Positions 18,054 to 63,995 of a stretch of 64,000 bases of DNA are shown piece after piece (within the stretch, counting starts at the first letter, position 1; each line of letters starts with the position of its first letter). Position numbers and translations under genes: made by a program. The notes under the pieces are model-generated. The model saw nothing but the letters and a program-made list of their open reading frames with translations, was not told the origin of the DNA and made no database searches. Source of the DNA: Thermoanaerobaculia bacterium (GTDB lineage Bacteria > Acidobacteriota > Thermoanaerobaculia > UBA5066). The stretch spans positions 1 to 64,000 of the forward strand of contig JBBRRY010000014.1 in NCBI GenBank assembly GCA_038245905.1, in the 5' to 3' direction.

Positions 18054-20671
18054 CGTCGTCGCCGGGCGACCTCTTCGAAGATGAGGGCCCGGCTGCAGGC
18101 CGGTTCGTGGTCGAAGACGTTGTGTCGCGGGACGCGCCGCTCGCCGAGCGGATGCGTCCACGGGATCTCTCGGAAGTCGCCGGCCCGCCCGACCTCGTGG
18201 GGGAGGGCTCGTTCCTCGCGAAGGCGCTCGCCGCCGACACGGTTCCTTCTCTCGTCTTCTGGGGCCCGCCGGGGAGCGGCAAGACGACGCTCGCCCGCAT
18301 CATCGCCGCGAAGACGCAGGCGCGCTTCATCGGCTTCTCGGCCGTCGTCTCGGGCATCAAGGAGATCCGGACCGTGATGGAGGAGGCGTCCCGCGCCAGG
18401 CGCCGGGGCCGCCGGACGCTCCTCTTCGTCGACGAGATCCATCGCTTCAACCGGGCGCAGCAGGATGCCTTCCTGCCGTTCGTGGAAGCCGGCGACATCG
18501 TCCTCGTGGGTGCCACGACGGAAAATCCGTCGTTCGAGCTGAACGGCGCGCTGCTGTCGCGTCTCCGAGTCGTGATCCTGCCGCCGCTCGAAGAGAAGGA
18601 GCTCGTTCTGCTGATGAAGAGGGCCTTGGCGGAGCCCGTACGAGGGCTCGGGGCGCGGGCGACGGTGAATGAAGAATCCTTCGAATGGTTAGGACGCTTC
18701 GCGGACGGCGACGCCCGACGGGCGCTCACGGCACTCGAAGCGGCAGTCTCCCATCTTCCTTTCAAAGAAAATTCTCTTTCTTCTTCTTCCCCTCTGCCTT
18801 CTCTCTCGGTCCCCCTCCTCGAGGACCTCTTCAAGAGAAAAGTGCTGCTCTACGACAAGTCCGGCGACGAGCACTTCAACCTCATCTCGGCGCTCCACAA
18901 GTCGCTGCGCGATTCGGATGTCGACGCGTCGCTCTATTGGCTCGCCCGTATGCTCGAGGCGGGGGAGGACCCGCTCTACGTGGCGCGCCGTCTCGTCCGC
19001 TTCGCGTCCGAGGACATCGGGCTCGCCGATCCGTCCTCGCTCACGCTCGCGGTCGCCGCCAAGGAGGCCGTGCACTTCATCGGCATGCCTGAAGGCGCCC
19101 TCGCCCTTGCCGAGATCGTCGTTCACATGGCGCTGGCGCCGAAGTCGAACGCGCTCTACACGGCATATGCCGAGGCCGCGGCCGACGTGCACGAGCGTCC
19201 GAACGAGCCGCCGCCGCTCGCGATCCGGAATGCCCCGACGAGGCTCATGAAGCAGGCCGGTTACGGCGCAGGTTACAAGTACGCGCACGACACCGAAGAG
19301 AAGACGGCCGGCTTGTCCTGCCTTCCGGATTCGCTCGCGAGCCGGAACTACTACCGGCCGTCCGGCGAGGGACGCGAGAAGGACCTCAAGGCGCGCGCGG
19401 AGGCGATCCGAGCGCTTCGGGAGAAATTGAAGAAGGGGATCTTGCTTCTCGCTCTCGTCCTCGCCCTCTTACCTTCTAGGAGGATCTTCTCGGCGCCTCC
19501 CGACGTCGCGCCCGTAGGTGTCTGGCACGCGGCGCTCGTTCCGTCCGAAGGGCGCGAGGTCTTCTTCGACCTGAAAATAGTCGCGACGGGCGCGGGTCTT
19601 TCGGCTGCGCTCGTGAACGACCGGTCCGAGTTCGCCTTCACGTCGGCCTCCTGGGACGGGACGAAGCTCACGCTCGAGCTCGCGAACTACGACGCGAAGA
19701 TCGTGGCGGAAATAGAGGGCGGCCGGCTCGAGGGCGGCTACACGCGCGTCGTCGCGGCGGGCCTCGCGGCGGTGCCATTTCGGGCCTCCCGCAAGGCGCG
19801 TCCGCTCGTGGCCGCGCCGAAGGACGGCGTTTCTCTCGCCGGAAGCTGGGGTGTCGAGATGTTCGACGGGAAGAAGACTGAAAAACTGACAGGCGTCTTC
19901 CGCCAGGAGGGCAGCGCCGTAACGGGAACGTTTCTCTCGACGACCGGCGACTACGGCTCTCTGCACGGCAGCTTCGACGGAGAGCAGCTCGTCCTGACCG
20001 TCTTCGACGGTGTCCACGTCTACCGTTTCGACGCGGAGCTGCTGCCGGACGGCACGCTTGCGGGCGAGTACCGCTCGCGCACGAATCCGCCCGTGCCGTG
20101 GCGAGGAAGGCGGCTGGACGCGGCCTCCCGGACCACGTTTCTCCCGGATTCCTTCGACATCGTGAAGCCGCGGAATCCGGCCGCTCCCTATGTCGTCTCG
20201 TTTCCCGACGTCGAGGGCCGCATCGTATCGACCTCGGACGCGCGGTTCGCCGGTAAGCCGATGCTCGTGGCCTTCATGGGCACCTGGTGCCCGAACTGCG
20301 CCGACGAGGCGCCTTTTCTCAGGGAGCTCGAGACACGATACGGGCCGCGCGGCCTTGCCGTGCTTTCCCTGTCGTTCGAATACGCGGACGACGTGGAGCG
20401 GAACCGCCGCCAGGTGAAGCGGTTCGTCGAGCGCTTCGGCACGAAGCATCCGATCCTCCTCGCGGGCACGACGAAGGACGCCGCGACATCTCCCGCGACG
20501 CTTCCGCTCGTGGGTTGGGAGGGCTACCCGACGACGCTCTTTCTCGACCGCCAGCACCGCATCGTGAAGATCCATTCCGGCTTCGACGGCCCGGCGACGG
20601 GAGAGCGCTTTACGAAGCTGAAGAAGGAGATCGAGGGAGCGGTGGAGATGCTCCTGGGATCGGCGAATTAG
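18050..20671 (+). CDS. rarA: Replication-associated recombination protein A in frame with a TlpA-like thioredoxin-fold protein
   Basis: PLAERMRP, WGPPGSGKTT, FVDEIHRFN, GATTENP, ISALHKS, ASEDIG, YKYAHD; C-terminal GTWCPNC and GYPTTLFLDR. Confidence 0.85.
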   Translation: MTSSPGDLFEDEGPAAGRFVVEDVVSRDAPLAERMRPRDLSEVAGPPDLVGEGSFLAKALAADTVPSLVFWGPPGSGKTTLARIIAAKTQARFIGFSAVVSGIKEIRTVMEEASRARRRGRRTLLFVDEIHRFNRAQQDAFLPFVEAGDIVLVGATTENPSFELNGALLSRLRVVILPPLEEKELVLLMKRALAEPVRGLGARATVNEESFEWLGRFADGDARRALTALEAAVSHLPFKENSLSSSSPLPSLSVPLLEDLFKRKVLLYDKSGDEHFNLISALHKSLRDSDVDASLYWLARMLEAGEDPLYVARRLVRFASEDIGLADPSSLTLAVAAKEAVHFIGMPEGALALAEIVVHMALAPKSNALYTAYAEAAADVHERPNEPPPLAIRNAPTRLMKQAGYGAGYKYAHDTEEKTAGLSCLPDSLASRNYYRPSGEGREKDLKARAEAIRALREKLKKGILLLALVLALLPSRRIFSAPPDVAPVGVWHAALVPSEGREVFFDLKIVATGAGLSAALVNDRSEFAFTSASWDGTKLTLELANYDAKIVAEIEGGRLEGGYTRVVAAGLAAVPFRASRKARPLVAAPKDGVSLAGSWGVEMFDGKKTEKLTGVFRQEGSAVTGTFLSTTGDYGSLHGSFDGEQLVLTVFDGVHVYRFDAELLPDGTLAGEYRSRTNPPVPWRGRRLDAASRTTFLPDSFDIVKPRNPAAPYVVSFPDVEGRIVSTSDARFAGKPMLVAFMGTWCPNCADEAPFLRELETRYGPRGLAVLSLSFEYADDVERNRRQVKRFVERFGTKHPILLAGTTKDAATSPATLPLVGWEGYPTTLFLDRQHRIVKIHSGFDGPATGERFTKLKKEIEGAVEMLLGSAN
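18674..18776. repeat. Dispersed motif, convergent pair in rarA
   Basis: + GAATCCTTCGAATGG 18674-18688; - CCTTTCAAAGAAAATTCTC 18758-18776 followed by CT-rich tract. Confidence 0.55.
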
Positions 20672-20717
20672 CGAGCCAGAAGAGCGCCGAAGTCGTGCAG
20701 ATCATGTGTAGGTCTCC

Positions 20718-21281
20718 TCAGGCGATCCGGCCCGCCCGCAGGGCGAGGGGCCAGGAGATCGCCTTCTCCGCGGCGGCGTCGCCCCACGCGGCGGCGAGGC
20801 GCGGCGCGAGTTCGGAGATGGGGTCGCGGCCGGTCTCCTTCGCGCAACGCTTCACGGCGGACCACGTGGAGAGGTAACCGAGCGTCCGTTCGAGATCCCA
20901 CGCGGCCGTCATCGTCACGGGCGGAACGGGGATTTCTTCGAATGGAAAGAGAAGATCGGCATAGCGGCGGGCGACGATCGCGCGCTCGGGCGGCCAGTAC
21001 GCTTCGACGGACGCGTGGAAGGCGCGGAAGACCGCATCGACCGCCGGCGAATCCGGGATGTCGAAGAGGTCGTACGCCCAGACGGCAATCGCCGCGCCCT
21101 CGCCCCCGACTCTCTTCACCTCGGCTGCCTGCCCGCTCCCGGTGCCCGCGTCCCAGCAGACGGTGTGCCGCGTGACGAGCGCCGCCACCGCGTCGAAGAG
21201 CTCCGGCGGATACGTCGGCCGGAAGCGTGTGTAGTCGCCCGCGTGGCCCGAGAAGTGGTCCTGGAAAGTGGTCCCGCTCAG
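20718..21281 (-). pseudogene. Class I SAM-dependent methyltransferase with apparent internal in-frame deletion
   Basis: FQDHFS..Y..FRPTYP, WDAGTGSGQAA joined directly to EVKRV; WDLERTLGYLSTWSA. Confidence 0.6.
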
Positions 21282-22750
21282 ATTTCTTCGCGCCGGTAGT
21301 TGGGAGCTTCCTTCGTGATGATGACGTCGTGCGCGTGGCTCTCCCTCAGGCCGGCCGCCGTGATGCGGACGAATTTCGCCTTCTTCACGAGGTCGGGCAG
21401 GCTCGCCGCGCCGGCGAGGCCCATGCCCGAACGCACGCCTCCGGTGAGCTGCGCCAGGAGCGTCGAGACGGGGCCCTTGTGCGGCACCATGCCCTCGATG
21501 CCCTCGGGCACCATCTTGCGCGGCTCCTCCTCGTCCTGGAAGTAGCGGTCGGCCGAGCCCTGTTTCATCGCGCCGATCGAGCCCATGCCGCGGTACGCCT
21601 TGAACGTGCGGCCCTGGTAGAGGATTGTTTCGCCGGGCGCCTCGTCGGTGCCCGCGAAGAGGCTGCCGATCATCACGGAGTGCGCGCCCGCGGCGAGGGC
21701 CTTTGTGACGTCGCCCGAGAACTTGATGCCGCCATCCGCGACGAGCGAGACGTTCGACTTGCCGAGACCCTTCACGCATTCCCGGATCGCGTGAATCTGC
21801 GGCACGCCCGCACCGGTGACGACGCGCGTCGTGCAGATGGAACCCGGTCCGATGCCGATCTTCACGGCGTCCGCGCCCCGCCGGACGAGATCCCGTGTGC
21901 CTTCCGCCGTCGCCACGTTTCCCGCGAGCACGGGTGTCGAGGGAAACTTCCTCTTCAGGGACGTCAGGGCGGAAAGCACGCCCTCGCTGTGGCCGTGCGA
22001 GGAGTCGAGGACGAGGATGTCGACCTTCGCGGCGACGAGCTCACGGGCGCGGTCGAGGAGGTCGCTGCTCGCGCCCACGGCCGCGGCAACGCGCAGGCGC
22101 CCGAAGGAGTCCTTGCAGGCGCTCGGGTACTTGATCTGCTTCTGGATGTCCTTGACGGTTATGAGGCCCTTGAGATTTCCCGCCCGATCCACGACGAGGA
22201 GCTTCTCGATGCGGTGACGATGGAGGAGCTCCTTGGCCTGCTCGAGTGTCGTGCCCGGCGGACAGGTCACGAGGTTTTCCTTCGTCATGCGCTCGGAGAT
22301 GGGGAGGTCCATGCGCGTCTCGAAACGAAGATCGCGATTCGTCAGGATGCCGACGAGCTTGCCGCGGTCGTCCACGACGGGAACACCCGAGATCCGGAAG
22401 TTCGCCATCACTTCGAGAGCCTCCGAGATCTTCTGCGTCGGACGGCACGTGACGGGGTCGACGATCATCCCGCTCTCCGACCGCTTCACCTTGTCGACCT
22501 CGGCCGCCTGGGCCTCGATCGTCAGGTTCTTGTGAATGACGCCGAGGCCGCCGTTCTGCGCCATCGCGATCGCGAGGCGCGACTCCGTGACCGTGTCCAT
22601 CGCGGCCGCGAGAATGGGGATGTTCAGGCCGATCCCCGTCGTGAGCCGGGTTTTCAGGTCGGTGTCGGCGGGATGGACCTTCGAGCGAGCGGGCAGGAGA
22701 AGAACGTCGTCGAACGTGAGGGCGAGCGGGATCTCCCGTTCATTCACCAT
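21278..22750 (-). CDS. guaB: IMP dehydrogenase
   Basis: [18 protein letters not shown] pair, [17 protein letters not shown]. Confidence 0.97.
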
Positions 22751-22790
22751 GCGGATTCATACCACAGAGGGCCCGTTTGAGGGGACGGCG

Positions 22791-25628
<2,838 letters not shown>

Positions 25629-25690: not shown

Positions 25691-25706
25691 GATTTTCTTA
25701 GAAAGG
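25691..25706 (+). repeat. Dispersed motif, intergenic consensus copy upstream of secA
   Basis: GATTTTCTTAGAAAGG flanked by GA-rich tracts; 15 bp identical to 44023-44037. Confidence 0.65.
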
Positions 25707-25715
25707 TGAGGAGAG

Positions 25716-25736
25716 TCTGACCGCTACGCGGTCAGA
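25716..25736 (-). terminator. Hairpin overlapping the M23 peptidase stop codon
   Basis: Perfect 9-bp stem TCTGACCGC-tac-GCGGTCAGA followed by a pyrimidine-rich (not pure T) tract. Confidence 0.4.
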
Positions 25737-26613
25737 AGGCGTTCAATACGTAGTCGAGCGGGTTCACCGGCTTGCCGTCGGCGTGCACCTCGTAGTGAAG
25801 GTGCGGCCCGGTGGAGCGACCCGTCGAGCCCACGAGCGCCACGAGGTCGCCGCGCCTCACGCGCTGACCTTCGGCGACGCGCGCCGTCTGGAGATGACCG
25901 AACAGGGTGGTGACGCCGTAGCCATGGGCGATCTCGACGAAACGGCCGTACCCCTTGTCCCAGCCGACGCGCACGATCGTGCCCGACGCCGGGGCGACGA
26001 CGCGGTTCCCGGCGGGCGTCGAGATGTCGATGCCGGTGTGAAACTCGAGGTGGTTCGTGAACGGATCGGGACGGCTTCCGAAGCCCGCCGTGAGGACGCC
26101 GGCGGCGGGAACGATCGTGGGCGTCAGGGCGAGCTGGTCGGCCTGAAGGGAGAGCTTCTTTTCGACGAGCTTGAGACGCGAGGAGAGTAGCGCGCCGCGG
26201 CGCCCGGCTTCGCTCAGGCCCGAGTCGATGGAATCCGCGGGATTGACCGGCACGGCTGAAAGTCCGCCGACGCCGCCAAGCCCCGGGTCGCGCACCGCCG
26301 ATAGTCCGGCCACGATCGAGAGCCGTCGCGTCCGGTCCTCGAATTCGGCCAGCATCTTCTCGATCGATTCGAGACGGGTGTTCGTGAGCGACGCCCGCGA
26401 CCGGAGGTCGGAGTTCTCCGCCAGGATGGCGGTGACCTCGCTGTTCTTTCGGATCGAGCGGACCCAGAGTGTCGAGAAGGTCACGCCGAGGAGAACCGAA
26501 AGTCCGAAGCAGATACCCAGAGACCACAGCAGCCGTGAAGAGACACGGAACTGCCGAAAACGCGCCCTGGCGTGGGGCAGGAAGATGATGGTGTGGTCTC
26601 GTTTTTTCGGCAT
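25732..26613 (-). CDS. M23 family metallopeptidase
   Basis: N-terminal TM, coiled coil, FHTGIDI, STGPHLHYEV. Confidence 0.9.
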   Translation of the reverse strand: MPKKRDHTIIFLPHARARFRQFRVSSRLLWSLGICFGLSVLLGVTFSTLWVRSIRKNSEVTAILAENSDLRSRASLTNTRLESIEKMLAEFEDRTRRLSIVAGLSAVRDPGLGGVGGLSAVPVNPADSIDSGLSEAGRRGALLSSRLKLVEKKLSLQADQLALTPTIVPAAGVLTAGFGSRPDPFTNHLEFHTGIDISTPAGNRVVAPASGTIVRVGWDKGYGRFVEIAHGYGVTTLFGHLQTARVAEGQRVRRGDLVALVGSTGRSTGPHLHYEVHADGKPVNPLDYVLNAF

Positions 26614-35375: not shown

Positions 35376-36500
35376 GTGAGTGCATCCGTTCGCGATTACT
35401 ACGAAGTTCTCGGTGTGGGACGAAACGCGTCCCCCGAGGAGATCAAGGGCGCCTACCGGAAGGCGGCGCTGCAGCACCATCCCGACAAGAACCCGGGCGA
35501 CACGCGCGCCGAGGACAAGTTCAAGGAGGCCGCGGAGGCTTACTCGGTCCTTTCCGATCCCGATAAGCGCGCGCGTTTCGACCGCTTCGGAGTCGAAGGC
35601 GTGCGCGGCGCGGGCGGGGGGACTGGCTTCGACCCGACTCAGTTCGTGGACTTCGCCGACATCCTCGGAGACCTGTTCGGTTTCGCTTCGGGCGGCGACA
35701 CGCGCGCGTCCCGGCGTACGGGCGAGGACCTGAAAGCCGACGTGACACTGTCCTTTGAGGACGCCGCCTTCGGCTCTGAAGTCTCGGTTCCGATCCAGCG
35801 ATACGAGCGCTGCGACGCGTGCCGAGGCCAAGGTGGGCGCGGCGGAGCCGTGCCGCTGACCTGCCCAACGTGCCGGGGCCAGGGCCGCGTCCAATACAGG
35901 CAGGGGTTCTTCGCGGTCGCGCGCCCATGCCCCGACTGCGGAGGCTCGGGCGAGCGAGTCAAGGACCCGTGCCCGGACTGTCGCGGTGACGGGCGCACGC
36001 GCCACGCGCGAACGTTGACGGTGGCGATTCCGCCCGGCGTGGACGAGGGCGCGCGGCTGCGCCTCACGGGTGAGGGAAACGCGGGCCGGCGGGACGGGCG
36101 CCCCGGCGATCTCTACGTCTTCATCTCGGTGATGTCGCACGAGCAGTTTCGGCGTGATGGCTTCGACGTCGTGCTCACGTGGGCCATCCCGTTCCACGTC
36201 GCGGCTCTCGGGGGGACGCTCCGCGTGCCGACGCTGCACGGCGACGCGACGTTCGACGTGCCTTCCGGTACCGCGGCGGGCCGCGTCTTCACGCTCAAGG
36301 GCAAGGGAGTCCCGCGCCTAGACGGCCGCGGGAAGGGTGACCAGCACGTCCTCCTGACGGTCCGGGTGCCGAAGAAGATGACGCACGCGCAGAAAGAGGC
36401 CGTCGAGAAGCTCGCGGAAGCGTTCGGGTCGGAGTCGGGAACGCCCACGAAAGACGAAAGAGGATTCTTCGAAAGGTTGAAGGATTTTCTTGGTTCCTAG
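35376..36500 (+). CDS. dnaJ: Chaperone DnaJ
   Basis: J-domain HPD, four CxxCxGxG repeats. Confidence 0.95.
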
Positions 36501-37344
36501 CGGCACGGCCGTCCGCATCGAGGTGCCGGCGGCGCTCGCCGAGAGGATCGAAGAGCCAGAAGGGGATTTCTTAGACGGATTAGGAGGCCTGGAGTTCTCG
36601 TCCACGGTCTCGACGGACGGCAACGTCCTGATCTGGGTTGACTCCGTAGACCGGGCGGAGGCTCTCGCGAGGCTCGCCGCGATCGGACTTCCCGGCCTTT
36701 CCACCTTCGAAGAAATCCCCCGGGACTGGGTGGCCGAGTCGGCTGCTTTGAGGAGAGCGGTCCTCGTGGAGCGATATCTCTTCGATCCCCACGACGGCGA
36801 CTTGGCTTCAGCCGTGCCGCCCGGCGTGCGGCGTCTCCATCTCCCCGCCGTCCGGGCCTTCGGGACGGGCTCGCACGAGTCCACGCGCCTCGCCGTGCGC
36901 CTCCTTCTCGCCCTTGACCTCCGCGGGGCGCGCGTCCTCGATGTCGGCTGCGGCACCGGAACGCTGGCTTTCGTGGCCGCGCTCGAAGGCGCACGCCACG
37001 TCATCGCGTTCGACCTCGACCCCTATGCCGCGTTCGCGACGCGCGAGCAGGCGCGCGCGAACGGCATCCTCGGCGTTTCGGCATTCGCGGGGCCTCTCGA
37101 CGCGCTCGCGGCGAAAACCCGCTTCGACGTCGTCGTCGCGAACATGATTCAGGAAGAGGTCGCGCCTCTGCTCCCGGCGATCCACGATCGCCTCGCGCCG
37201 AGCGGCCGGCTGCTGTGCTCGGGGCAGCTCGTGGAGAGGGAGGAAGACTTCCGATATTTGCTTCGGAAGACAGGCTTCCGGCCGGTCCGTTCGCTTCGAG
37301 AAAACGAGTGGTTCGGGTCAGCCTGGATTTCTTCGAATGGCTGA
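36490..37344 (+). CDS. prmA: Ribosomal protein L11 methyltransferase
   Basis: [28 protein letters not shown]; canonical position after dnaJ. Confidence 0.85.
36565..36717. repeat. Dispersed motif, convergent pair in prmA
   Basis: + GATTTCTTAGACGG 36565-36578; - CCTTCGAAGAAATC 36704-36717. Confidence 0.55.
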
Positions 37345-38107
37345 GGACACTCTCTCTCGTCCGCCGCGCGTCTACGTGCCGGATCTCGCGGAGTTCCTGG
37401 GGAGCTCCGACGAGAACCTGAAGATTTCTTTGAAGGTGGAAGAGCGAGATCACGTCCGCTCGAGGCGCCTCACGGATGGCGACGAAGTCGTCGCGCTCGA
37501 CGGAAAGGGCCTTCGGCTGCGCGCGACGCTGACTCGCAGCGGCTCGGCCTTGGCCCTCTTACCATTTAGGCAAATCTCCTCTTCCTCTGTTGTTTCTTCT
37601 TCTCTCCCCGGCGAGCCCGCGAATCGCGTGACCGTGCTGCTCGCGTGCGCGGAGCCCGCGCGGGTCGAATGGGCAATCGAGAAGGGCACGGAGTGCGGCG
37701 CGGCCGGCTTCGTGCTGCTGGACGCCGAGCGCTCCCAGCGTGCGCACGTTGCGGCGCTCTCGTCGCCTGCGCGGCTCGAGCGTCTCCGCCGCATCGCGGT
37801 CGAGGCAACGAAGCAGTGCGACCGAACTCTCGTGCCGGTCGTGGAGGGTCCGAAGAGCACGAAAGAGTTTCTTAGAGGGGGAAGAGGGAAGGAGACGCTG
37901 TTCGTAGCGGACCCCGCGGGTGCGCCGATGGGCTCGTTCGCGCCAGAAGCCGCGACGGTCGCCATCGGCCCCGAGGGAGGATTCGCTCCGTCCGAACTCT
38001 CTCAATTCAAAGAAAATCATTCTTTTGTTCTCTCTCTCGGTCCCCGCATCCTCCGCCTCGAAACGGCCGTGGTCGTGGCGCTCACGCGGTTGGTCGATCC
38101 CGGCTGA
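37337..38107 (+). CDS. rsmE: 16S rRNA m3U1498 methyltransferase
   Basis: IEKGTECG, EATKQC, IGPEGGF, SLGPRILRLETA. Confidence 0.9.
   Translation: MAEDTLSRPPRVYVPDLAEFLGSSDENLKISLKVEERDHVRSRRLTDGDEVVALDGKGLRLRATLTRSGSALALLPFRQISSSSVVSSSLPGEPANRVTVLLACAEPARVEWAIEKGTECGAAGFVLLDAERSQRAHVAALSSPARLERLRRIAVEATKQCDRTLVPVVEGPKSTKEFLRGGRGKETLFVADPAGAPMGSFAPEAATVAIGPEGGFAPSELSQFKENHSFVLSLGPRILRLETAVVVALTRLVDPG
37423..37576. repeat. Dispersed motif, convergent pair in rsmE (1)
   Basis: + GATTTCTTTGAAGG 37423-37436; - CCATTTAGGCAAATC 37562-37576 followed by long CT-rich tract. Confidence 0.5.
37865..38018. repeat. Dispersed motif, convergent pair in rsmE (2)
   Basis: + GAGTTTCTTAGAGGG 37865-37879; - TTCAAAGAAAATC 38006-38018 followed by CT-rich tract. 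Confidence 0.55.
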
Positions 38108-38167
38108 GATCGCCGCCGGATCGGGCGGCTCGTTTCGGTTAGCATCCCCCCGAAGACGGAGGACGCG

Positions 38168-39115
38168 ATGAGCTTCGAAAACGTCAAGAAGGTCTGGATG
38201 AACGGGAAGCTGATCGACTTCGCGGACGCGAAGATACACATCTTCACCCACGCCCTGCACTACGGGTCTGGCGTCTTCGAAGGGGAGCGCTGCTACAACA
38301 CGGCGCGCGGGCCCGCGATCTTCCGCCTCGACGATCACCTCGACCGCCTCTTCTGGTCCGCGAAAATCTACCGGATGGTGATTCCGTACGCGATCGACCA
38401 GCTCCGGGAGGCGACGCTCGAGGTCGTGCGCGCGAACGACTTCAAGGCGTGTTACATCCGGCCCCTCGTCTACCGCGGCTACGGCGCGCTCGGAGTCAAC
38501 CCGTTCCCGAACCCCGTGGACGTGGCGATCGGCTGCTACGAGTGGGGAAAGTATCTCGGCGCGGACGCCCTCGAGCAGGGAGTCGACACGTGCTGCTCGT
38601 CCTGGATGCGCATCGCGCCGAACACGATGCCCGCCATGGCGAAGGCCACCGCGAACTACGCGAACAGCCAGCTCATCAAGATGGAAGCGATCACGAACGG
38701 CTATCACGAGGGGATTGCGCTCGATCACAACGGGCGCATCTCCGAGGGCTCTGGCGAAAATCTCTTCCTCGTCTGGAAGGGCCGCCTCTACACGCCGCCG
38801 CTCTCGGCCTCGACGCTGCCCGGCATCACGCGCCTGTCCGTGATCCAGCTCGCGCGCGAGCTGGATTTCCAGATGGAAGAGAAGACGATTCCGCGCGAGA
38901 TGATCTACGCGGCCGACGAGATGTTCTTCACCGGTACGGCCGCCGAAATCACGCCGATCCGCTCCGTGGACCGGATTCCGGTCGGGAACGGCAAACGCGG
39001 TCCGATGACGGAGGCTTTGCAGAAGGCCTTCTTCGACATCGTCGAGGGCCGGGTGGACGACCGATACGGCTGGCTGACGCCGGTCTATTCGGCGGTACCC
39101 ACCGTCTCGCGGTAG
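38168..39115 (+). CDS. ilvE: Branched-chain amino acid aminotransferase
   Basis: HALHYGSGVFEG, YIRPL, AKATANY, SEGSGENLF, LPGITR, FTGTAAE. Confidence 0.95.
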   Translation: MSFENVKKVWMNGKLIDFADAKIHIFTHALHYGSGVFEGERCYNTARGPAIFRLDDHLDRLFWSAKIYRMVIPYAIDQLREATLEVVRANDFKACYIRPLVYRGYGALGVNPFPNPVDVAIGCYEWGKYLGADALEQGVDTCCSSWMRIAPNTMPAMAKATANYANSQLIKMEAITNGYHEGIALDHNGRISEGSGENLFLVWKGRLYTPPLSASTLPGITRLSVIQLARELDFQMEEKTIPREMIYAADEMFFTGTAAEITPIRSVDRIPVGNGKRGPMTEALQKAFFDIVEGRVDDRYGWLTPVYSAVPTVSR

Positions 39116-39124
39116 GTCGTTCCC

Positions 39125-39901
39125 TCACGCACGCCTTCGCGTCGCGATCAGCTCGGCCACGATCGCGATCGCGATCTCCTCGGGGGACTCGGCCCCGATG
39201 TCGAGGCCGATGGGATTCTTCGCGCGGCCCAGCTCGTCTTCCGTGAAGCCCTCGTTCCGCAGCTCGTCGAAGAGGGCCTTACGCTTGGCCTTGCTGCCGA
39301 TCATGCCGAGATACGCGACGGGCGCGTGACGGAGGCGGCGGAACGCGAGGCCGTCCGTCACGTGCCCGCGAGAGACGATGGCCACGAAGTCCTTCGAATC
39401 CGGGAGCGGCAGGTCCGCATAGTCGTCCCCGACGTGGACGAGCCGGGCGCCGGGCGGGAAGGCGGCGGGGTCGAGCTGCTCCTCCCGCTCGTCCGCGACG
39501 GTGACTTCGTACCCGCTGAACGCCGCGGCGCGGGCCAGCGCGCGTCCGCAGTGGCCGGCACCCACCACGAGAAGGCGGGGCGCGCGCTCGACGATCTCGA
39601 GAAGAACGGACGCGCTCCCGCCGCAGACCGCGCCGAACGTGTTCTCACCTGTCGGGACGAACGGATAATCGCGCGTGAACGGGAGGCCGTGGGCCAGGAG
39701 CAGCTTCTTCGCGTCGGCGATGACGAGCGACTCGAACTTGCCGCCTCCGATCGTCCCCTCGGTTGCCCCGTCGGGCAGGACGAGCATCCGTGCCGTCGTC
39801 TCCCGGGGCGTGGAGCCCACGGCGGAGACGACCGTCGCCATCGCGAGCCGGCCGTGGCGCTCGAGGAGTCGCGGGAGCTCTACGAAGAATTGATGGCTCA
39901 T
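39125..39901 (-). CDS. xdhC: XdhC/CoxF family molybdoenzyme maturation chaperone
   Basis: GSTPR, GTIGGG, CGG, GAGH, YLGMIGS, PIGLDIGAESPEEIA. Confidence 0.88.
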   Translation of the reverse strand: MSHQFFVELPRLLERHGRLAMATVVSAVGSTPRETTARMLVLPDGATEGTIGGGKFESLVIADAKKLLLAHGLPFTRDYPFVPTGENTFGAVCGGSASVLLEIVERAPRLLVVGAGHCGRALARAAAFSGYEVTVADEREEQLDPAAFPPGARLVHVGDDYADLPLPDSKDFVAIVSRGHVTDGLAFRRLRHAPVAYLGMIGSKAKRKALFDELRNEGFTEDELGRAKNPIGLDIGAESPEEIAIAIVAELIATRRRA

Positions 39902-44142: not shown

Positions 44143-44761
44143 GTTTCACCTCCGCCTTCGCGGCCGCGTCGCACGCGGCGAAGACGCCTCCGTACGTCCC
44201 GCACCGGCAGAGGTTGCCGGCCACTGCCTCCTTCACATCGTGCGCGGTCGGGTGGGCGTTCTTCGCGAGGAGCCCGGTGCAGGAGACGACCATCCCGGGT
44301 GTGCAGAAGCCGCACTGGAGCGCGTCCGCGTCGACGAAGGCTCTCTGAATCGGGGACATGGCGTCGGGGGAGCCGAGACCTTCGATCGTCGTGACCTTCC
44401 GCCCGTCCGCGTCGTGGACCAGCGTGAGACAGGAGTTCACGGCGAGGCCGTCGAGAAGGACCGTGCAGGCGCCGCAGGCGCCGCGGTCGCATCCGATCTT
44501 CGTGCCCGTCATCCCCCACGAATCGCGCAGCGCCTCGGCCAGTGTCGTGCGAGGCTCGAACAGGCCCTTCTTCACGGCGCCGTTCAGCGTGATGCTGACG
44601 GGCAGCCCGCCGCCCGCGAAGGTTGCGGCCTTCGCGCGCTCTTCGGCGAGCACGGCGGCCCCCGCGGTGGCGGAGGCGACGGCGGTCGTCGCAAGGCCCT
44701 TGATGAGTCCGCGGCGGGTGAATCCGCCCGTGCCGTCCCGATGGTCTCTCTCGTCGGCCAT
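44135..44761 (-). CDS. 2x[2Fe-2S] subunit with Tat signal (PaoA-like)
   Basis: FTRRGLIK twin-arginine leader; GCDRGACGACTV..C, QCGFC, CRCG; GGAGG SD before ATG 44761. Confidence 0.9.
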   Translation of the reverse strand: MADERDHRDGTGGFTRRGLIKGLATTAVASATAGAAVLAEERAKAATFAGGGLPVSITLNGAVKKGLFEPRTTLAEALRDSWGMTGTKIGCDRGACGACTVLLDGLAVNSCLTLVHDADGRKVTTIEGLGSPDAMSPIQRAFVDADALQCGFCTPGMVVSCTGLLAKNAHPTAHDVKEAVAGNLCRCGTYGGVFAACDAAAKAEVKHG

Positions 44762-44883
44762 GACCCCTCCTGAAGCAGTGGGGACTATACCGCCGTCCCG
44801 CGGAGAATCCGTCGCGTCCGTTGACGGCAAGTGCCTGAAAAGCCTATCCTTGCCGCTATTCCGGAGTGATCGGGAGGGCCTCG

Positions 44884-46062
44884 ATGCACATCAACGACCT
44901 GCTCAAGATCTCGGTCGAGCGGAAGGCGTCCGACCTCCACCTGAAGGTGGGTGCGCACCCGATCATTCGGGTGGATGGCGAGCTGATTCCTCTCGTGGAC
45001 CTCAAGCGCCTCATGCAGGAAGACACGATCGCGATGGCGTTCTCGATCATGTCTTCCCGGCAGAAGGAAAAGTTCAAGAACAACTTCGAGATCGACATCG
45101 CATACTCGGTGCCGGGCCTCGGGCGATTTCGCTGCAACATCTTCCAGCAGCGAGGCACGGTCGGAATGGTCTGCCGCGTAATCCCGGCCCGCATCCTCAC
45201 GATCCGCGACCTCCTGCTCCCGCCCATCCTGGAGCGGATCTGCGAGGAGACGCGCGGCCTCATCCTCGTGACAGGCACGACGGGCTCGGGCAAGTCCACG
45301 TCGCTCGCGGCCATGATCGACCAGATCAACTCCTCGCGAGCCGAGCACATCATGACGATCGAGGACCCGGTCGAATTTCTCCATCGGGACAAGAAATCGA
45401 TCATCAACCAGCGCGAGCTCGAGGTCGACACGCGCTCGTTCGCGTCGGCCATCCGGGCGGCCCTCCGGCAGGATCCCGACGTCATTCTCGTGGGCGAGAT
45501 GCGCGACTTCGAGACCGTGGAGACAGCGCTCGTGGCGGCCGAGACCGGCCACCTCGTCATGTCGACCCTCCATACGATGGACGCGACGGAGACGGTCAAC
45601 CGCATCATCTCGGTCTTTCCGCCGCACCAGCAGAAGCAGATCCGTCTGCAGCTTGCGGCCGTCATCAAGGCCGTCTGCTCGATGCGGCTTCTCCCGCGCG
45701 CGGACGGTCTCGGGCGCGTGCCGGCCGTCGAGGTCCTGATCGCGACGAACTACATCCGCGATTGCATCGAGAACAAGGAAAAGACGAAGTACATCCACGA
45801 CGCCATCAAGGCCGGCACCTCGCAGTACGGGATGCAGACGTTCGACCAGTCGCTTTTCCAGCTCTACAAGACAGGTCTCATCACGCTGGAAGAGGCGGTC
45901 CGCCGCTCGAGCAACCCGAACGAGTTCAAGCTCAAGATCCAGGGCATCCAGTCCACGTCGGACATGGCGAACGAGCAGATGGAGGCATCTCTCGAGTCGC
46001 CGGACGCCATGAATCCGCAGGACACGGCGTCGCCCTTCGACTTCTCGAACCAGCCCGGCTGA
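44884..46062 (+). CDS. pilT: Type IV pilus retraction ATPase PilT/PilU family
   Basis: ASDLHL, GTTGSGKST, TIEDPVE, ALRQDPDVILVGEMRD, AETGHLVMSTLHT, GMQTFDQ. Confidence 0.9.
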   Translation: MHINDLLKISVERKASDLHLKVGAHPIIRVDGELIPLVDLKRLMQEDTIAMAFSIMSSRQKEKFKNNFEIDIAYSVPGLGRFRCNIFQQRGTVGMVCRVIPARILTIRDLLLPPILERICEETRGLILVTGTTGSGKSTSLAAMIDQINSSRAEHIMTIEDPVEFLHRDKKSIINQRELEVDTRSFASAIRAALRQDPDVILVGEMRDFETVETALVAAETGHLVMSTLHTMDATETVNRIISVFPPHQQKQIRLQLAAVIKAVCSMRLLPRADGLGRVPAVEVLIATNYIRDCIENKEKTKYIHDAIKAGTSQYGMQTFDQSLFQLYKTGLITLEEAVRRSSNPNEFKLKIQGIQSTSDMANEQMEASLESPDAMNPQDTASPFDFSNQPG

Positions 46063-46068
46063 CCCGAA

Positions 46069-46519
46069 TTGGACGCCTCGAGCGCCGCGCTGGCCGCCCT
46101 GGCCCGGCGCGCGCACACACGACGCGAGCTCGAGCAGAAGCTCGGTCGCAAGGGTTTCGACCGCGCGGAGATCAGGATTCTGCTCGACGACTTCGAAGAG
46201 CATGGCCTGCTGAACGACGCGAAGACGGCCACCGCACTCGCGGCGTGGCGCCTCCGGACCGGGCGGGGGCGCAGCCGCATCGCGTCCGAGCTGGCGGGGA
46301 AGGGCGTTTCCCGAGCGGACGTGGACGCGGCGCTCGCGTCTCTCGACCCTCGAGACGAGGCGGAGGCCCTGCGGGCGGCCCTCGAGAGGCGCGGACGCGC
46401 CCTCCCGGCCGGATTGACGCGGCAGGCCCGGTCGAAGAAACTGTTCGACCACCTCGTGAGGCGCGGGTTCGCCCCCGCCGCCATCCTCGAGGCGCTGCAC
46501 AGGAAAGGCGATTCCACGG

Positions 46520-46533
<14 letters not shown>
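46069..46533 (+). CDS. recX: Regulatory protein RecX
   Basis: LARRAHTRRELEQKL, GLLND, RIASELAGKG, LVRRGF; typical position before alaS. Confidence 0.85.
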
Positions 46534-49261
<2,728 letters not shown>

Positions 49262-49281
49262 GCCCCTGTATCCCTCTGGTT

Positions 49282-49287
49282 TATAAT
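49282..49287 (+). promoter_or_regulatory. Consensus -10 box 9 nt before the lytic transglycosylase start
   Basis: TATAAT in an AT-rich intergenic patch; ATG at 49297. Confidence 0.55.
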
Positions 49288-49296
49288 ATTAGGGCG

Positions 49297-50040
49297 ATGC
49301 CGTCTCTCAGGATTGGTCTGGCGCGGGTGTCGGTTGCGGCTTTGCTCGCGGCGTCGAATGGGCTCCACGCGGACGTCCATCTCGTGCGGCAGGCGAACGG
49401 TTCGGCGCTGATCTTCAACGACAGCGTTGGCAGCGGCTGGCGCGTGAACGGCGGCGTCCCCTCGGACAGCTACCTCGTCTCGCGCCGGAGCACGCCGACC
49501 CCTTACGATACGGCGATCGAGAGCGAGGCCCGGGCGGCGGGCGTCGATGCGGCTCTCGTCAAGAGCGTCATGCTCGTGGAGTCCAACTACAACCCGCGCG
49601 CGGTTTCCCGAAAGGGCGCCCGCGGCCTCATGCAGCTCATGCCGGAGACCGCCCGTCGCTTCGGGGTGTCGGACCGCCACGACGCGGGTCAGAGCATCCG
49701 GGCCGGCGTCCATTATCTGGCAACCCTCCTCGAACAATTCAAAGGCGATGTCTCGCTTGCGCTCGCGGGATACAACGCCGGCGAGGGCGCCGTTGCGCGG
49801 CACGCGGGCGTTCCGCCCTATCGCGAGACGCGCGAATACATCCGGCGGGTCCTCGTGGCGCGTCATGGCGAGGGAGCCGCGTCTCCCGCAATCGGGGGCG
49901 GATTCCGCGGGACGAAGACCGGCCCTGTCCTGCGCACGTCCTCGGTGCGCGTCTCGAACCAGAACGGAACCCGCGTGTTCTCGAATACGGCCGTGGAATT
50001 CGCGGAGCGACAGGCGCCGGCTCTCGGGCGCGTGCGCTGA
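49297..50040 (+). CDS. SLT-domain lytic transglycosylase
   Basis: Signal peptide; VESNYNPRAVSRKGARGLMQLMP, AGYNAGEG, PPYRETREY. Confidence 0.88.
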   Translation: MPSLRIGLARVSVAALLAASNGLHADVHLVRQANGSALIFNDSVGSGWRVNGGVPSDSYLVSRRSTPTPYDTAIESEARAAGVDAALVKSVMLVESNYNPRAVSRKGARGLMQLMPETARRFGVSDRHDAGQSIRAGVHYLATLLEQFKGDVSLALAGYNAGEGAVARHAGVPPYRETREYIRRVLVARHGEGAASPAIGGGFRGTKTGPVLRTSSVRVSNQNGTRVFSNTAVEFAERQAPALGRVR

Positions 50041-58443: not shown

Positions 58444-59270
58444 CGAGTCTCTCCGGCGTCAAGCGCCCAGCCGGCGCCGCTCCGGACCACCGGAAGCGGC
58501 ACGAGGGACTCTCCCTCGCACGGGCCGGCGATGCACAGTCCGCCTTCCGGGTCGAAAAGAGCTCCATGGTTCCGGCAGACGAGAAAGGCGCCGTCGGCCG
58601 TGAGCAGCGGCTCGCCGCCTCGGTCGAGCGGAATCGCCACGTGGGGGCACACGTTGCGGAAGGCGCGCGCGCCGTCCGGAGCGGCCACGAGGATCCCGGA
58701 CACGGTTCCATTTCCATCGGAGCGAGGCTTGCGGAAGGCGAACGCGCGGAGAGAGGGGAGAGACTCGGAATTTTCTATGAAAGGGGAGCGGGAAGCGAAC
58801 GCGCGAACGTGCTCCCGGCCTTCGTCGGACTCTGTGTCGGCGAATGTGCTGCCTGAGGACTCGTCGAGGAGGTGGCGGAGGGCCGCGGCGTCGGCAGGGG
58901 GCGTCGGCAGGAGCCGCGCTTCAGGCGCGGGCGAGAACCTCACAGCGTCGACACCGGCAGCGCGCGGCTCCCCGGCCAATCCCCCGACTCGAAGAAATAA
59001 CAGCGTCACATGCTGCGATGAGCCGCCCGGAGCCGCTCCTGCGACGGTCTCGAACCTCCAGGGCTCGAGGGCGACGGGAGTCACGTCCATCTCCTCGCGC
59101 CACTCGCGGACGAGCGCGTCCTCGGGCGTCTCTCCCGGTTCCACCTTTCCGCCGGGAAACTCCCAAAGGCCGGCCCATGCGCGGCCGGCCGGCCGGCGCG
59201 CGAGGAGAAGCCGCCCCTCCCGCACGAAGACTCCAGCCACGACGAGAAGCGTTCCCGGCGCCGCGCTCAT
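58440..59270 (-). CDS. MutT-type Nudix hydrolase fused to a Rieske [2Fe-2S] domain
   Basis: WEFPGGKVEPGETPEDALVREWREEM Nudix box; NVCPH...LVCRNHGALF Rieske ligands; ATGA overlaps on both sides. Confidence 0.8.
   Translation of the reverse strand: MSAAPGTLLVVAGVFVREGRLLLARRPAGRAWAGLWEFPGGKVEPGETPEDALVREWREEMDVTPVALEPWRFETVAGAAPGGSSQHVTLLFLRVGGLAGEPRAAGVDAVRFSPAPEARLLPTPPADAAALRHLLDESSGSTFADTESDEGREHVRAFASRSPFIENSESLPSLRAFAFRKPRSDGNGTVSGILVAAPDGARAFRNVCPHVAIPLDRGGEPLLTADGAFLVCRNHGALFDPEGGLCIAGPCEGESLVPLPVVRSGAGWALDAGETR
58768..58784 (+). repeat. Dispersed motif copy at the Nudix-Rieske linker
   Basis: GAATTTTCTATGAAAGG preceded by GGAGAGAGGGGAGAGA. Confidence 0.5.
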
Positions 59271-60220: not shown

Positions 60221-60263
60221 GACACTTCAGTCTAGCAACCCATTTCGTATCATCCCCGTACCC

Positions 60264-61464: not shown

Positions 61465-61504
61465 GAGGCTCCTCATCTTCGATCCCGCTTAATATAAGCG
61501 ACGG

Positions 61505-62938
61505 ATGAGTGACAAGCCTGAGGACGCGGCGAAACGCGACGTCGCGGCTCTCGCCGCCGATCTGGCGGGCCAGATCGCATCTCTCTCGGCGTTCGCCGGC
61601 TCGGGTCTCGCGTCACACGGGTTCAGAGGGGCACCCCTCGGTTCCACGGCGGGCGTACCTGGATACGCGGGGCCGCGGACGATGCTGGAGAACGCCGGGC
61701 GTTTCGTGTCGCCCGTGCTCCCGGCCGGAGCCGCGCTGCGCCCCCTCAAAGCTGCCCTCCTGCGCGTGCTCCGGATCGTCACGCGGGACCAGACGACGTT
61801 CAATTCCGCGCTTCTCGAGGCCCTGCGCGGGGCGCTGGTCGAGACGGAGGCGAGCCTCAGCGGTCTCGCGTCGGCGTCAAAGGAGGCGGAAGAGGCTGCG
61901 CGGCGCGCGGAGGCCGCCACGGGCGTGGCGACGGAGCGCCTGGAACGGGCGGTCGCCGACCTTTCGGCTCTCTCGGCGCGGGTCGGAAGGGAAGCCGCAG
62001 CTCGTGAGAACGCGGGCCGCGACCTCGCGGGGAGCCAGCGCCGGCTGGATGACCTCGAAAAGGACCGCGACGCGCGCTTCGAGACGCTGGCGCGGGAGAG
62101 GGAGAGAGAGTCCGAGAAGTCCGGAGAGATTCTCAGAAGGTTGGATGACGCGAGCGAAGGGCTCCGGATGCTGCGCCTCGAATGGTCCTCCCTTCGAAGC
62201 AATTTGCAGGCGATCGCGACTGATCGAACGCCGGTCGAGCGGGCCGCCCTCGCGACGACCGGTTCGAACTTACGCCCCGAAGACCCCTTGCGAGCGGGCC
62301 TCTACGTCGACTTCGAGGAGCACTTCCGGGGCAGCGAGGCCGACATCCGCGAGCGCCAGGCGAAGGACGCGGCCCGGTTCCGGGGCGCGGTGCTTCCCGT
62401 GGCCGATCTCGGCTGCGGCCGGGGGGAGTTTCTCGAGGCGCTGAAGGCGGAAGGCGTGACGGGAATCGGCTGCGACGCGAATCCCGTCATGGCGACGCGC
62501 GCGACCGAGAAGGGTCTCACCGTCGATGCTGCGGACCTTTTCGCGTGGCTCGGCGCGCGCGGGGACGGCTCGCTCTCGGGCATCACGGCGTTCCAGGTCG
62601 TCGAGCACCTTGCTCCGGCTTCGCTGTTCGACCTCGTAGGGTTGGCCGTCCGGAAGCTCGCTCCGGGGGGCCGTGTCCTCTTCGAGAGCGTGAACCCCGA
62701 GTCCGTCTACGCGATGCGGTGGTTCTGGATGGACCTCACGCACGTGCGGCCCGTGCCGGCCCCCGCCCTCGCGCAGCTTTTCCGGGCGTCGGGCCTCCGA
62801 GATGTCGAGGTGGATTTTCGCTCGCCGGTGCCCGACGCGGAGGGTCTGCCCGCGGGTGTCGCGGAGGACCCGCGCTTCGCGCCGCTCGCGCGTCTCCTCT
62901 TCGCGCCGCAGGATTACGCCGTCACCGGCGTGAAGTAG
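61505..62938 (+). CDS. Coiled-coil + class I SAM methyltransferase (polysaccharide-associated)
   Basis: Long heptad region, YVDFEEHFRGS, DLGCGRGEFL, FQVVEHL, FWMDLTHVRP, QDYAV. Confidence 0.8.
   Translation: MSDKPEDAAKRDVAALAADLAGQIASLSAFAGSGLASHGFRGAPLGSTAGVPGYAGPRTMLENAGRFVSPVLPAGAALRPLKAALLRVLRIVTRDQTTFNSALLEALRGALVETEASLSGLASASKEAEEAARRAEAATGVATERLERAVADLSALSARVGREAAARENAGRDLAGSQRRLDDLEKDRDARFETLARERERESEKSGEILRRLDDASEGLRMLRLEWSSLRSNLQAIATDRTPVERAALATTGSNLRPEDPLRAGLYVDFEEHFRGSEADIRERQAKDAARFRGAVLPVADLGCGRGEFLEALKAEGVTGIGCDANPVMATRATEKGLTVDAADLFAWLGARGDGSLSGITAFQVVEHLAPASLFDLVGLAVRKLAPGGRVLFESVNPESVYAMRWFWMDLTHVRPVPAPALAQLFRASGLRDVEVDFRSPVPDAEGLPAGVAEDPRFAPLARLLFAPQDYAVTGVK
62126..62204. 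repeat. Dispersed motif, degenerate convergent pair
   Basis: + GAGATTCTCAGAAGG 62126-62140 after a GA-rich tract; - CCTTCGAAGCAATT 62191-62204. Confidence 0.4.
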
Positions 62939-62957
62939 GAAGGCCAAGGGGAGAGAG

Positions 62958-63995
62958 ATGGCGCGCGTCCTCGTCTGCACTGCGCAGGTGCCATTCGCCT
63001 CGGGCGGCGCCGAACGTCACGCCGAGGGGCTCGTGCGCGAGATCGTCGCCGCAGGACACGAGGTCGAGCTCGTGCGCCTTCCGTTCAAGTGGTACCCGCG
63101 CGCGGAGATTTTGACCTCCGCGCTCGCGTGGCGACTTCTGGATCTCTCGGAGGCCGACGGGAAGCGTGTCGATCTCGTGATCCCGCTGAAGTTCCCGTCC
63201 TATCTCGTGAGGCACGAGAACAAGGTCGTGTGGCTGATCCATCAGTTCCGCCAGGCCTACGATCGATTTGGGACGGCAGAGAGCGACTTCACCGCCTCTC
63301 CCGAGGACACACGCTGGCGCGAGCTCATCGCCGAGACCGATCGCACGGGTCTCACGGAGGCGCGAAAGATCTTCACGAACGCCCGGAACACCGCGGACCG
63401 CCTCGCGCGCTTCAACGGGATCGAGGCCGAAGCGCTCTATCATCCGCCGCCGCTCGCGGGCCGCTACCGCACGGAGGTGGCTCAGGGCTTCGCGCTCGCC
63501 GCGGGCCGACTGGACGCCTGGAAGCGCGTGGATCTCGCGATCGGCGCCGCGGCGGCGGGGAAGTTCCGGCTCGTGATCGCGGGCGACGGCGCCGACCGCG
63601 CGAGGCTGGAGGCGCTGGCCAGGAGGAGCGGCGCCGACGTGCGCTTCACGGGCCGCGTGTCCGACGACGAGCTCCTGCGCCTCTACGCGACGTCGAGCGT
63701 CGTGATCTTCCCCCCGGCGGACGAGGACTATGGGTACATCGCGCTCGAAGCGTTCCTTTCGAAGAAGCCCGTGGTGACGTGCACGGATTCTGGCGGCCCT
63801 CTGGAGTTCGTCGTCGACGGCGAGAACGGCCGCGTCGTCCCGCCCGACGCCGCCGCGCTCGGAGGGGCGGTCGCGGAGCTTCTTGCGAATGAGAAGAAGG
63901 CTTCGGAGCTCGGAGAAAGAGGCTTTGAAAGGGTGAGAGACATCCGGTGGGACCATGCCGTCCGGGCCCTGCTGGCGGCGGGCGGAATCGGGTGA
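62958..63995 (+). CDS. Glycosyltransferase family 4
   Basis: GGAE, WLIHQFRQ, GRLDAWKR, EDYGYIALEA, GGPLEFVVDG. Confidence 0.88.
   Translation: MARVLVCTAQVPFASGGAERHAEGLVREIVAAGHEVELVRLPFKWYPRAEILTSALAWRLLDLSEADGKRVDLVIPLKFPSYLVRHENKVVWLIHQFRQAYDRFGTAESDFTASPEDTRWRELIAETDRTGLTEARKIFTNARNTADRLARFNGIEAEALYHPPPLAGRYRTEVAQGFALAAGRLDAWKRVDLAIGAAAAGKFRLVIAGDGADRARLEALARRSGADVRFTGRVSDDELLRLYATSSVVIFPPADEDYGYIALEAFLSKKPVVTCTDSGGPLEFVVDGENGRVVPPDAAALGGAVAELLANEKKASELGERGFERVRDIRWDHAVRALLAAGGIG

Follow-up and report, generated by a model that had tools for sequence, protein, structure and literature searches.

The DNA considered here, called the window below, is the first 64,000 nucleotides of contig C14 of a genome assembly of 3,797,265 bp (113 contigs, GC 0.678). 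It holds secA, dnaJ and alaS together with genes for methyltransferases, oxidoreductase subunits and a glycosyltransferase, and within and between these genes stands a short, polar, AT-rich word that is the subject of this report (Table 1). Other genomes that carry the word are named in their record titles as metagenome-assembled genomes of Thermoanaerobaculia, Acidobacteriota. An earlier note on the window had described more than 20 dispersed AT-rich copies on both strands, and all 21 of the sites that it named were recovered within a few bases, although those at 19472 and 41697 are weak.

The word has the form RR(W)TTTCTTNGAARGK with the conserved core TTTCTTNGAARG. It was modelled as a 20-column weight matrix built from the 105 genome matches to the 16-mer GATTTTCTTAGAAAGG at no more than two mismatches, and matrix positions 4-8, 10-12 and 14 (T, C, G, A) are each 92-99% conserved. 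The 9 bp of TTCTNAGAA are palindromic about the central base, while a near-invariant G at position 14 and the flanks give the word its polarity. The polypurine tract that the earlier note placed on the 5' side is present, the word being polar with an outer flank of about 20 purine-rich bases (R up to 0.9), but the inner, 3' flank is also purine-rich over about 13 bases (RAARRRGG). Across the genome, 219 of the 544 purine or pyrimidine runs of at least 15 bases lie within 60 nt of a copy. Some spacers (C7:31715-31778, C29:46791-46841 and C1:75340-75411) contain iteron-like tandem arrays, in which two or three like-oriented copies follow each other at intervals of 24-35 nt, beside genes that are ordinary (rhodanese, TruA-like, thioredoxin-like, SpoU methylase).

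The abundance of the word is far beyond chance. In the window, the 16-mer gave 11 matches at no more than three mismatches, a number reached by 0/100 dinucleotide shuffles (mean 0.09, maximum 1), and genome-wide it gave 8, 37, 105 and 195 matches at 0, 1, 2 and 3 mismatches, with at least one match on 36 of the 48 contigs longer than 20 kb. Matrix copies in the genome number 633, 554, 477 and 406 at thresholds of at least 10, 12, 14 and 16 bits, as against 44, 17, 7 and 2 in one third-order Markov simulation of the same length; since the matrix was derived from its own matches, which is partly circular, these absolute copy numbers are biased upward. Within called genes there are 413, 351 and 299 copies at 12, 14 and 16 bits, compared with 57-76, 30-55 and 24-38 in five synonymous-codon shuffles within each gene that preserved the protein and the gene's codon pool. 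This null is conservative, since the shuffles retain the rare codons and peptides made by the word itself. The window holds 28, 25 and 22 copies at thresholds of 10, 12 and 14 bits where 64 kb of this genome contain on average 10.7, 9.3 and 8.0, so that the word is about 2.7 times denser in the window (25 copies with 9.3 expected). The 554 copies are divided evenly between the strands (276 plus, 278 minus) and are clustered along the genome, at about one copy per 7 kb with 139 of 336 10-kb bins empty, and regional GC content does not predict copy density (rho = -0.01). As the earlier note had proposed, the signal extends across the genome, is independent of reading frame and is one of DNA; it is far above both the codon-shuffled and the Markov nulls.

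A distinctive property of the word is absent from the earlier note and is newly recognised here, namely that the copies are arranged in convergent, head-to-head pairs. Amongst the 554 copies, 144 of the 168 plus-then-minus neighbours lie 30-300 bp apart, compared with 5/149 minus-then-plus and 28/174 same-strand neighbours. When 405 strong copies were considered, a convergent partner (at least 10 bits, 25-350 bp away) was found for 260 and a divergent partner for 13. The pair distances peak at 80-90 bp and are mostly 60-170 bp within a full range of about 30-300 bp, with no 10.5-bp or 3-bp periodicity (best periodogram power 5.5, null 95% point 7.7), and the genome has no excess of convergent pairs 0.5-5 kb apart. 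Of 148 pairs, 103 are within one predicted gene, 22 are between genes and 23 extend across a gene edge, while about one quarter to one third of all copies are unpaired. Orientation counts relative to the partner copy and not relative to the gene; there is no genic strand preference, either for single copies (45 sense, 47 opposite) or for paired copies (115 and 120).

The two members of a pair are not matched to each other, and each copy is held to the family consensus independently. Partner arms do not covary at their variable positions, save for a weak signal at position 9 (p = 0.02), and the identity between true partners equals that between shuffled partners in the outer flank and core, being slightly higher in the inner flank (5.22 vs 4.92, p = 0.006, a small effect). 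Three complete pairs that were folded had no extra stability over shuffles (z = -0.90, -0.01 and -0.96). The DNA enclosed by the pairs is unique in the genome, with 136 interiors used as queries yielding only 7 non-self matches, mostly those of two interiors to other contigs that are presumably, judged by a motif, kinase paralogues. Mobilised gene fragments were rejected on that account. Genes at C25:29575-29684 and C11:59928-60037 each contain a convergent pair with interiors 87% identical over 54 bases; the encoded peptides suggest that these are presumably Ser/Thr kinase paralogues, in which either the pair predates the duplication or it arose twice. No sign of inversion or excision at pairs was found in Logan contigs of four public DNA runs over positions 36400-49400, where among the 15 joints listed (there are 182 more) none had both ends at pair boundaries and one began inside the 48794-48886 pair, but such contigs drop rare variants and this comparison is uninformative either way.

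Table 1. Copies of the word in the window, with their surroundings and matrix scores (left and right copy for pairs).
Arrangement	Position and strand	Location	Score (bits)
Convergent pair	+ 36564-36579, - 36703-36718	PrmA-like methyltransferase gene 36490-37344 + (Pfam)	11.9, 17.9
Plus copy with weak minus partner	+ 37422-37437, - 37561-37576	RsmE-like gene 37337-38107 +	18.7, 10.1
Convergent pair	37865-38018	RsmE-like gene, flanking the conserved IGPEGGF core	25.4, 20.6
Convergent pair	40154-40329	MobA-like NTP-transferase gene 39898-40509 - (Pfam)	36.4, 19.2
Convergent pair	41586-41711	5' end region of CoxM-like FAD-binding subunit gene 40781-41788 -, flanking AGT.LLD	33.3, 11.5
Convergent pair	44023-44108	First ~40 codons of molybdopterin dehydrogenase large-subunit gene 41785-44142 - (Pfam)	34.5, 12.5
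Convergent pair	48005-48198	alaS 46520-49261 +, flanking the FYPEGGGQVAD core	14.7, 24.3
Convergent pair	48794-48886	alaS, around a variable-length linker	26.2, 25.3
Convergent pair	62126-62205	Methyltransferase-domain gene 61505-62938 + (Pfam)	14.2, 15.7
Single copy	4090-4105 -	Outside the range given in the earlier note	14.3
Single copy	18758-18773 -	Antisense in a variable linker of open reading frame 18050-20671 +	31.6
Degenerate single copy	19471-19486 -	Open reading frame 18050-20671 +	19.5
Single copy	20930-20945 +		18.9
Single copy	25691-25706 +	Perfect 16-mer, 0 mismatches	36.1
Single copy	36461-36476 +	3' end of dnaJ 35376-36500 + (Pfam)	12.3
Weak single copy	37255-37270 +		12.5
Single copy	47435-47450 +	alaS, over the universally conserved GYVLRK peptide	27.2
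Single copy	58769-58784 +		20.4
Single copy	63755-63770 -	Glycosyltransferase gene 62958-63995 + (Pfam)	14.9

Some of the window copies deserve further comment. The pairing of the first copy in the RsmE-like gene is doubtful because its partner is so weak. The outer purine tract of the pair at 44023-44108 codes for a Glu/Lys-rich N-terminus, and the copy at 18758-18773 reads in frame as PFKEN followed by a Ser/Leu/Pro-rich tail, with its TTCTTTGAA variant avoiding a stop codon. The perfect copy is intergenic, with an M23 peptidase gene (25732-26613, minus strand) ending on one side of it and secA (22791-25628, minus strand; both by Pfam) starting on the other. The open reading frame at 18050-20671 spans 873 codons and consists of an N-terminal ATPase part and a C-terminal part that opens with a hydrophobic, signal-peptide-like stretch; these are presumably a RarA/MgsA-like ATPase and a thioredoxin-fold-like end, and the frame could be a fusion or could run through what are really two separate genes. 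At 44866-49261 the gene order is PilT-type ATPase (T2SSE domain), recX and alaS, while recX is usually preceded by recA. The word matches no Rfam family in a search of the window, in which the sole Rfam match is a tRNA gene (13913-13996, plus strand).

The position of the copies relative to genes was assessed using the calls of a rough codon-likelihood finder (3,250 genes, 93.8% of the DNA), and the positional counts rest on these calls. The 195 matches to the 16-mer comprise 141 in genes, in line with the earlier note's impression that most copies are inside coding sequences, 51 in intergenic DNA and 3 on a gene edge, which represents an approximately 4-fold enrichment in the intergenic DNA (about 6% of the genome). 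Within genes, the copies are found in phases 0/1/2 at 44/3/21 on the same strand and 19/18/36 on the opposite strand, and the phases that generate stop codons are depleted or carry an altered central letter (TTCTTTGAA or TTCTTCGAA). Between genes, a group of 58 copies lies in sense 15-75 nt past a stop codon, and another 28 lie in sense 0-30 nt ahead of a predicted start codon and are followed by a GAGG-type sequence. Genes with the strongest codon bias carry 0.19 copies per 10 kb and those of the weakest quartile 3.14, a difference to which the word's own rare codons may contribute. No functional theme was evident amongst the annotated host genes, most sites being deep in housekeeping genes.

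The origin of the copies could be followed best in alaS, for which ten species of the genus were aligned with six outgroup genes from two other families (16 of 24 loci fetched, two unpublished genomes and six partial loci being omitted). The copies occupy the same alignment columns across species. In the pair around FYPEGGGQVAD the left copy is present in 7/10 species and the right copy in 9/10, and both copies of the linker pair are present in 10/10. The outgroup genes have ordinary GC-rich codons at the word sites and are equal in length at 4/5 codon-block sites, with the right copy of the linker pair being in a stretch that the outgroup lacks. At the GYVLRK site the full word is written in rare codons in five of the ten species, with partial forms in the rest and GC-rich codons in 6/6 outgroup genes; these partial forms imply that the word can accumulate stepwise. 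The fraction of AT at third codon positions is 0.61 within the word and 0.15 elsewhere, and synonymous third-position identity is 0.73 within the word and 0.68 elsewhere. Outside alaS, the RsmE pair has no insertion at either copy when compared with solved RsmE chains, and the alignment of the CoxM-like protein with the solved chain 5y6q_B crosses the region of the pair without insertion. In total, length is unchanged relative to the outgroup or solved homologues at 6/7 copies examined. The word is therefore made by substitution into existing sequence where the protein tolerates change, not by insertion, and it is maintained at the DNA level against the strong bias of this genome for G or C at third codon positions.

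The word is confined to a narrow clade. At no more than one mismatch the 16-mer occurs in 24/24 genomes of the genus, at 25-152 copies each, and in 0/16 genomes from two other families of the order (0/14 when the unpublished genomes G025 and G030 are left out), while the reversed word, used as a control in the same genomes, gave 0-1 matches. The exact 12-mer core is present in 28/28 genomes of the genus (27-245 copies) and, at 1-25 copies, in 8/8 genomes of a sister genus; one of two genomes of another genus has it once, and 0/24 genomes drawn from seven more genera of the family have it. The word is enriched both beyond the window and in relatives. In 400 kb of the sister-genus genome G049 there are 43 matrix copies, again in convergent pairs, and some are at the positions found in the window: the PrmA pair, which is in a syntenic region and keeps its 139-bp spacing, and, for both alaS pairs, the left copy. 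When 400 kb from each of the outgroup genomes G027 and G028 were screened for k-mers, no comparable word was found, whereas the same screen recovers the motif in 400 kb of the source genome. The top k-mer of G028 was an unrelated heptamer, AGTTGCG, found in short tandem arrays at at least three intergenic places (at about 54695, 92589 and 102485 in G028:C1:100001-500000). Full-text literature searches, which covered the main articles, turned up no account of this motif in these bacteria among the articles listed, and none of similar elements in the class. By class, the word is a clade-specific over-represented DNA word. An assembly or polishing artefact was also considered, and was rejected since the reading frames stay open, the stop-generating phases are avoided or carry the altered centre, and the genomes of the genus, all of which carry the word, were assembled independently.

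With inverted copies mostly 60-170 bp apart, the pairs have the size and shape of miniature inverted-repeat transposable elements (MITEs), and they could be the decayed ends of a small mobile element, whether a MITE with terminal inverted repeats, a repetitive extragenic palindrome (REP) doublet, or REPIN, mobilised by a REP-associated tyrosine transposase (RAYT), or an in-frame element like the Rickettsia palindromic elements. REPs occur outside genes and depend on a RAYT, the insertions of REPs, REPINs and MITEs share their interior, and Rickettsia palindromic elements can sit in frame. The word resembles these elements in being dispersed as inverted doublets about 100 bp apart, and the one alaS copy in a stretch lacking from the outgroup would also fit. 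However, the interiors of the pairs are the host gene's own unique sequence and include gene cores (FYPEGGGQVAD of AlaRS, IGPEGGF of RsmE and the FAD-binding stretch of the CoxM-like protein), length is mostly unchanged, most copies are genic, and the widely spaced convergent pairs that would mark autonomous copies are not in excess. The source genome and 24/28 genomes of the genus also lack a Y1 transposase of the RAYT/IS200 type. The mobile-element reading is thus largely refuted, an insertion of the MITE or in-frame type as well as REP/RAYT mobilisation having been rejected on these grounds, and we consider it very improbable. Genes of this transposase type are present in 30/34 genomes from the nine remaining genera of the family, but in only 4/28 of the motif-rich genus. 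Even less probable is the proposal that the pairs are bidirectional transcription terminators or other hairpins. Pairs do often follow stop codons, some of them between convergent genes, and a pyrimidine-rich tract extends past the 3' arm in both directions, but more than two thirds of the pairs are inside genes, the loops would be 30-250 nt long, and two spacers contain, after the word and separate from it, a canonical GC-rich hairpin that ends in a run of T. The absence of partner covariation and the shuffle-like fold energies rule out a hairpin or cruciform.

The word may alternatively act in RNA, in which case the sense copies would be an extended Shine-Dalgarno or standby site, the antisense copies would mimic the 3' tail of 16S rRNA, and the pairs would modulate translation, pausing or decay. 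Complementarity to the junction of the 16S 3' end and spacer extends over ten bases of the plus-strand word (CTTAGAAAGG) in four genomes of the genus, a likeness that was noticed post hoc. At the 16S loci of these genomes (G011, G003, G014 and G001, at about 3040-3075 in each) the reverse strand reaches 9.1 bits against the motif matrix in two genomes out of the four. The copies ahead of start codons described above are in keeping with such a function, as GGAGG, AAGGAG and GAAAGG are enriched words ahead of starts, and a convergent pair presents a purine arm and then a pyrimidine arm on either transcript. On the other hand, an RNA signal is at odds with the lack of strand preference in genes, the lack of covariation between partners and the ordinary stability of the folded pairs. 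The 16S tail is near-universal in sequence and so cannot account for a clade-specific word, and overall this explanation appears improbable. A stronger competitor is a clade-specific chromosomal DNA-binding protein, either architectural (nucleoid-associated) or a global regulator or roadblock, of which a dimer would read the near-palindromic TTCTNAGAA core, with the flanks providing polarity and two dimers interacting across about 100 bp. The palindromic 9-bp core with its symmetry broken by the G at position 14 would suit such a protein, arms held independently to the consensus without covariation are what reading by a protein predicts, and the strict head-to-head order (260/405 vs 13/405) suggests two oriented readers that touch. 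Also in favour are the clustered distribution, the many copies at conserved places across species, and the tandem arrays of 24-35 nt period. Known sites of this kind, those of ParB (parS), Noc, SlmA and MatP, are present in tens of copies, are symmetric and are not in head-to-head pairs. The word resembles them as a 14-16 bp site with a palindromic core that is tolerated and conserved inside genes, theirs being read by a dimeric protein, but it differs in being polar, in its hundreds of copies and in its head-to-head pairs. A bound pair of dimers is harder to reconcile with the absence of helical phasing (5.5 vs 7.7) over distances of about 30-300 bp, with the ninefold variation in copy number within one genus, and with sites that are mostly deep in housekeeping genes of no common theme. 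In addition, only ordinary genes, and no DNA-binding gene, lay beside the best copies and arrays at the three loci examined. We regard this as possible, and nearly as likely as the self-DNA tag that is considered next.

From the sequences we infer that a sequence-specific protein, common to two sister genera of Thermoanaerobaculia, would read each copy in a fixed orientation, and it may be that two bound readers act head to head. Our best guess, which we hold tentatively, is that the word is a putative tag of self DNA for exchange, like the DNA uptake sequence (DUS) of the neisseriae and the uptake signal sequence (USS) of the Pasteurellaceae. As an analogue of these, the word would mark DNA as 'self', and the word would be spread and preserved by molecular drive, as tagged DNA would be taken up or processed preferentially and then recombined. 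Copy number differs ninefold within the genus, which fits drive better than it fits a fixed regulon. The stepwise intermediates and the scarcity of the word in strongly codon-biased genes also fit drive, and this scarcity fits a confinement to permissive places. The genome has the competence genes ComEC and DprA and a ComEA-like gene, which occur in most bacteria, and ten pilin-like N-termini with N-methyl motifs. Contig C28 has, at 19379-22453, a possible competence or type II pseudopilus operon in which three small genes for GspG-like pseudopilins come after a secretin-like gene.

Several observations weigh against a self-DNA tag. The ComP_DUS domain was above cut-off in 0/63 genomes of the family, although this is a weak test as 14 control genomes were also silent. 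The density of the word is about tenfold below that of DUS, and its distribution is patchy, with the many empty bins noted above. Conservation across the family is no lower in a 12-kb stretch that lacks the motif than in a dense stretch of the window, so that belonging to the core genome does not alone predict where the word is located. The pairs 30-300 bp apart, mostly intragenic, are a feature for which uptake biology as known gives no reason. Finally, we know of no description of transformation in this class.

The comparison with the known uptake sequences is therefore close in some respects and not in others. DUS and USS are reported to be clade-specific polar words that lie in permissive parts of core genes, are themselves conserved, have a multi-base origin, and are over-represented downstream of genes, often in inverted form (PMC2397512, PMC3630211, PMC2346458). 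The word described here likewise is short, polar and over-represented on both strands beyond codon and composition nulls, is clade-specific and common to related genera in varying number, is found in permissive coding DNA in all usable frames while being itself conserved, arises by multi-base change relative to homologous sequence, and is enriched after genes and found in inverted pairs. DUS are further reported at 2245-5918 per genome, or thousands per 2-2.5 Mb (PMC3630211), with a spacing of about one per 1.1-1.5 kb and with inverted pairs no more than 21 nt apart that act as terminator hairpins (PMC2397512). The word differs in being sparse and patchy where DUS approach one per kb, in its pairs being widely spaced, mostly intragenic and not hairpins where DUS have close-spaced terminators, in consisting of an AT-rich core with purine tracts in a genome of 68% GC from a different phylum, and in that a ComP-type domain was not found here (the controls being silent too). 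On testing, the word had neither the density of DUS nor their close-spaced hairpin pairs, and for this reason we do not count it as an established uptake sequence.

The remaining well-known words appear to provide no better precedent. Chi and the FtsK-orienting polar sequences (KOPS) are 8-mers skewed with replication, and the highly iterated palindrome HIP1 is a symmetric 8-mer without pairing. Like them, the word is over-represented in coding DNA and maintained at the DNA level, but unlike Chi and KOPS it is equal on the two strands, with the single copies showing no significant relation to local GC skew in this 113-contig assembly (p = 0.13). None of the candidates named in the earlier note (DUS, USS, HIP1, matS, Noc-binding sites (NBS) and KOPS) is known to have head-to-head pairing at 30-300 bp. 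It is conceivable, at about the same tentative level as the self-DNA tag, that the word is a two-copy polar word of 12-16 nt read by a putative machine with two opposed sites that is confined to the two genera, and that it is neither a known uptake sequence nor a mobile element nor an RNA structure. Examples of such a machine would be a translocase or nuclease of the two-site type and a bivalent receptor for uptake or recombination. A modest share of the probability lies with explanations outside those listed here.

To our knowledge, few words persist in coding DNA in the face of codon bias, and each known case (DUS, USS, Chi, KOPS, parS and NBS) has led to a specific machine. The signal found here is as clear as in those cases and comes from an uncultured class of Acidobacteriota, and its architecture, in which the copies within essential genes strictly face each other at a distance of about 100 bp, is one that none of the known words has. 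It is possible, though we would put it below an even chance, that this paired architecture represents a categorically new kind of bacterial genome signal. In practical terms the word can be used as a precise marker for binning genomes of the clade and as a probe to capture its reader. Should the word prove to be an uptake tag, we know of no earlier one outside the Neisseriaceae and Pasteurellaceae, and it would point to sequence-selective transformation in Acidobacteriota of soil and sediment; if it is not, it would point to an unknown DNA-reading system in these bacteria.

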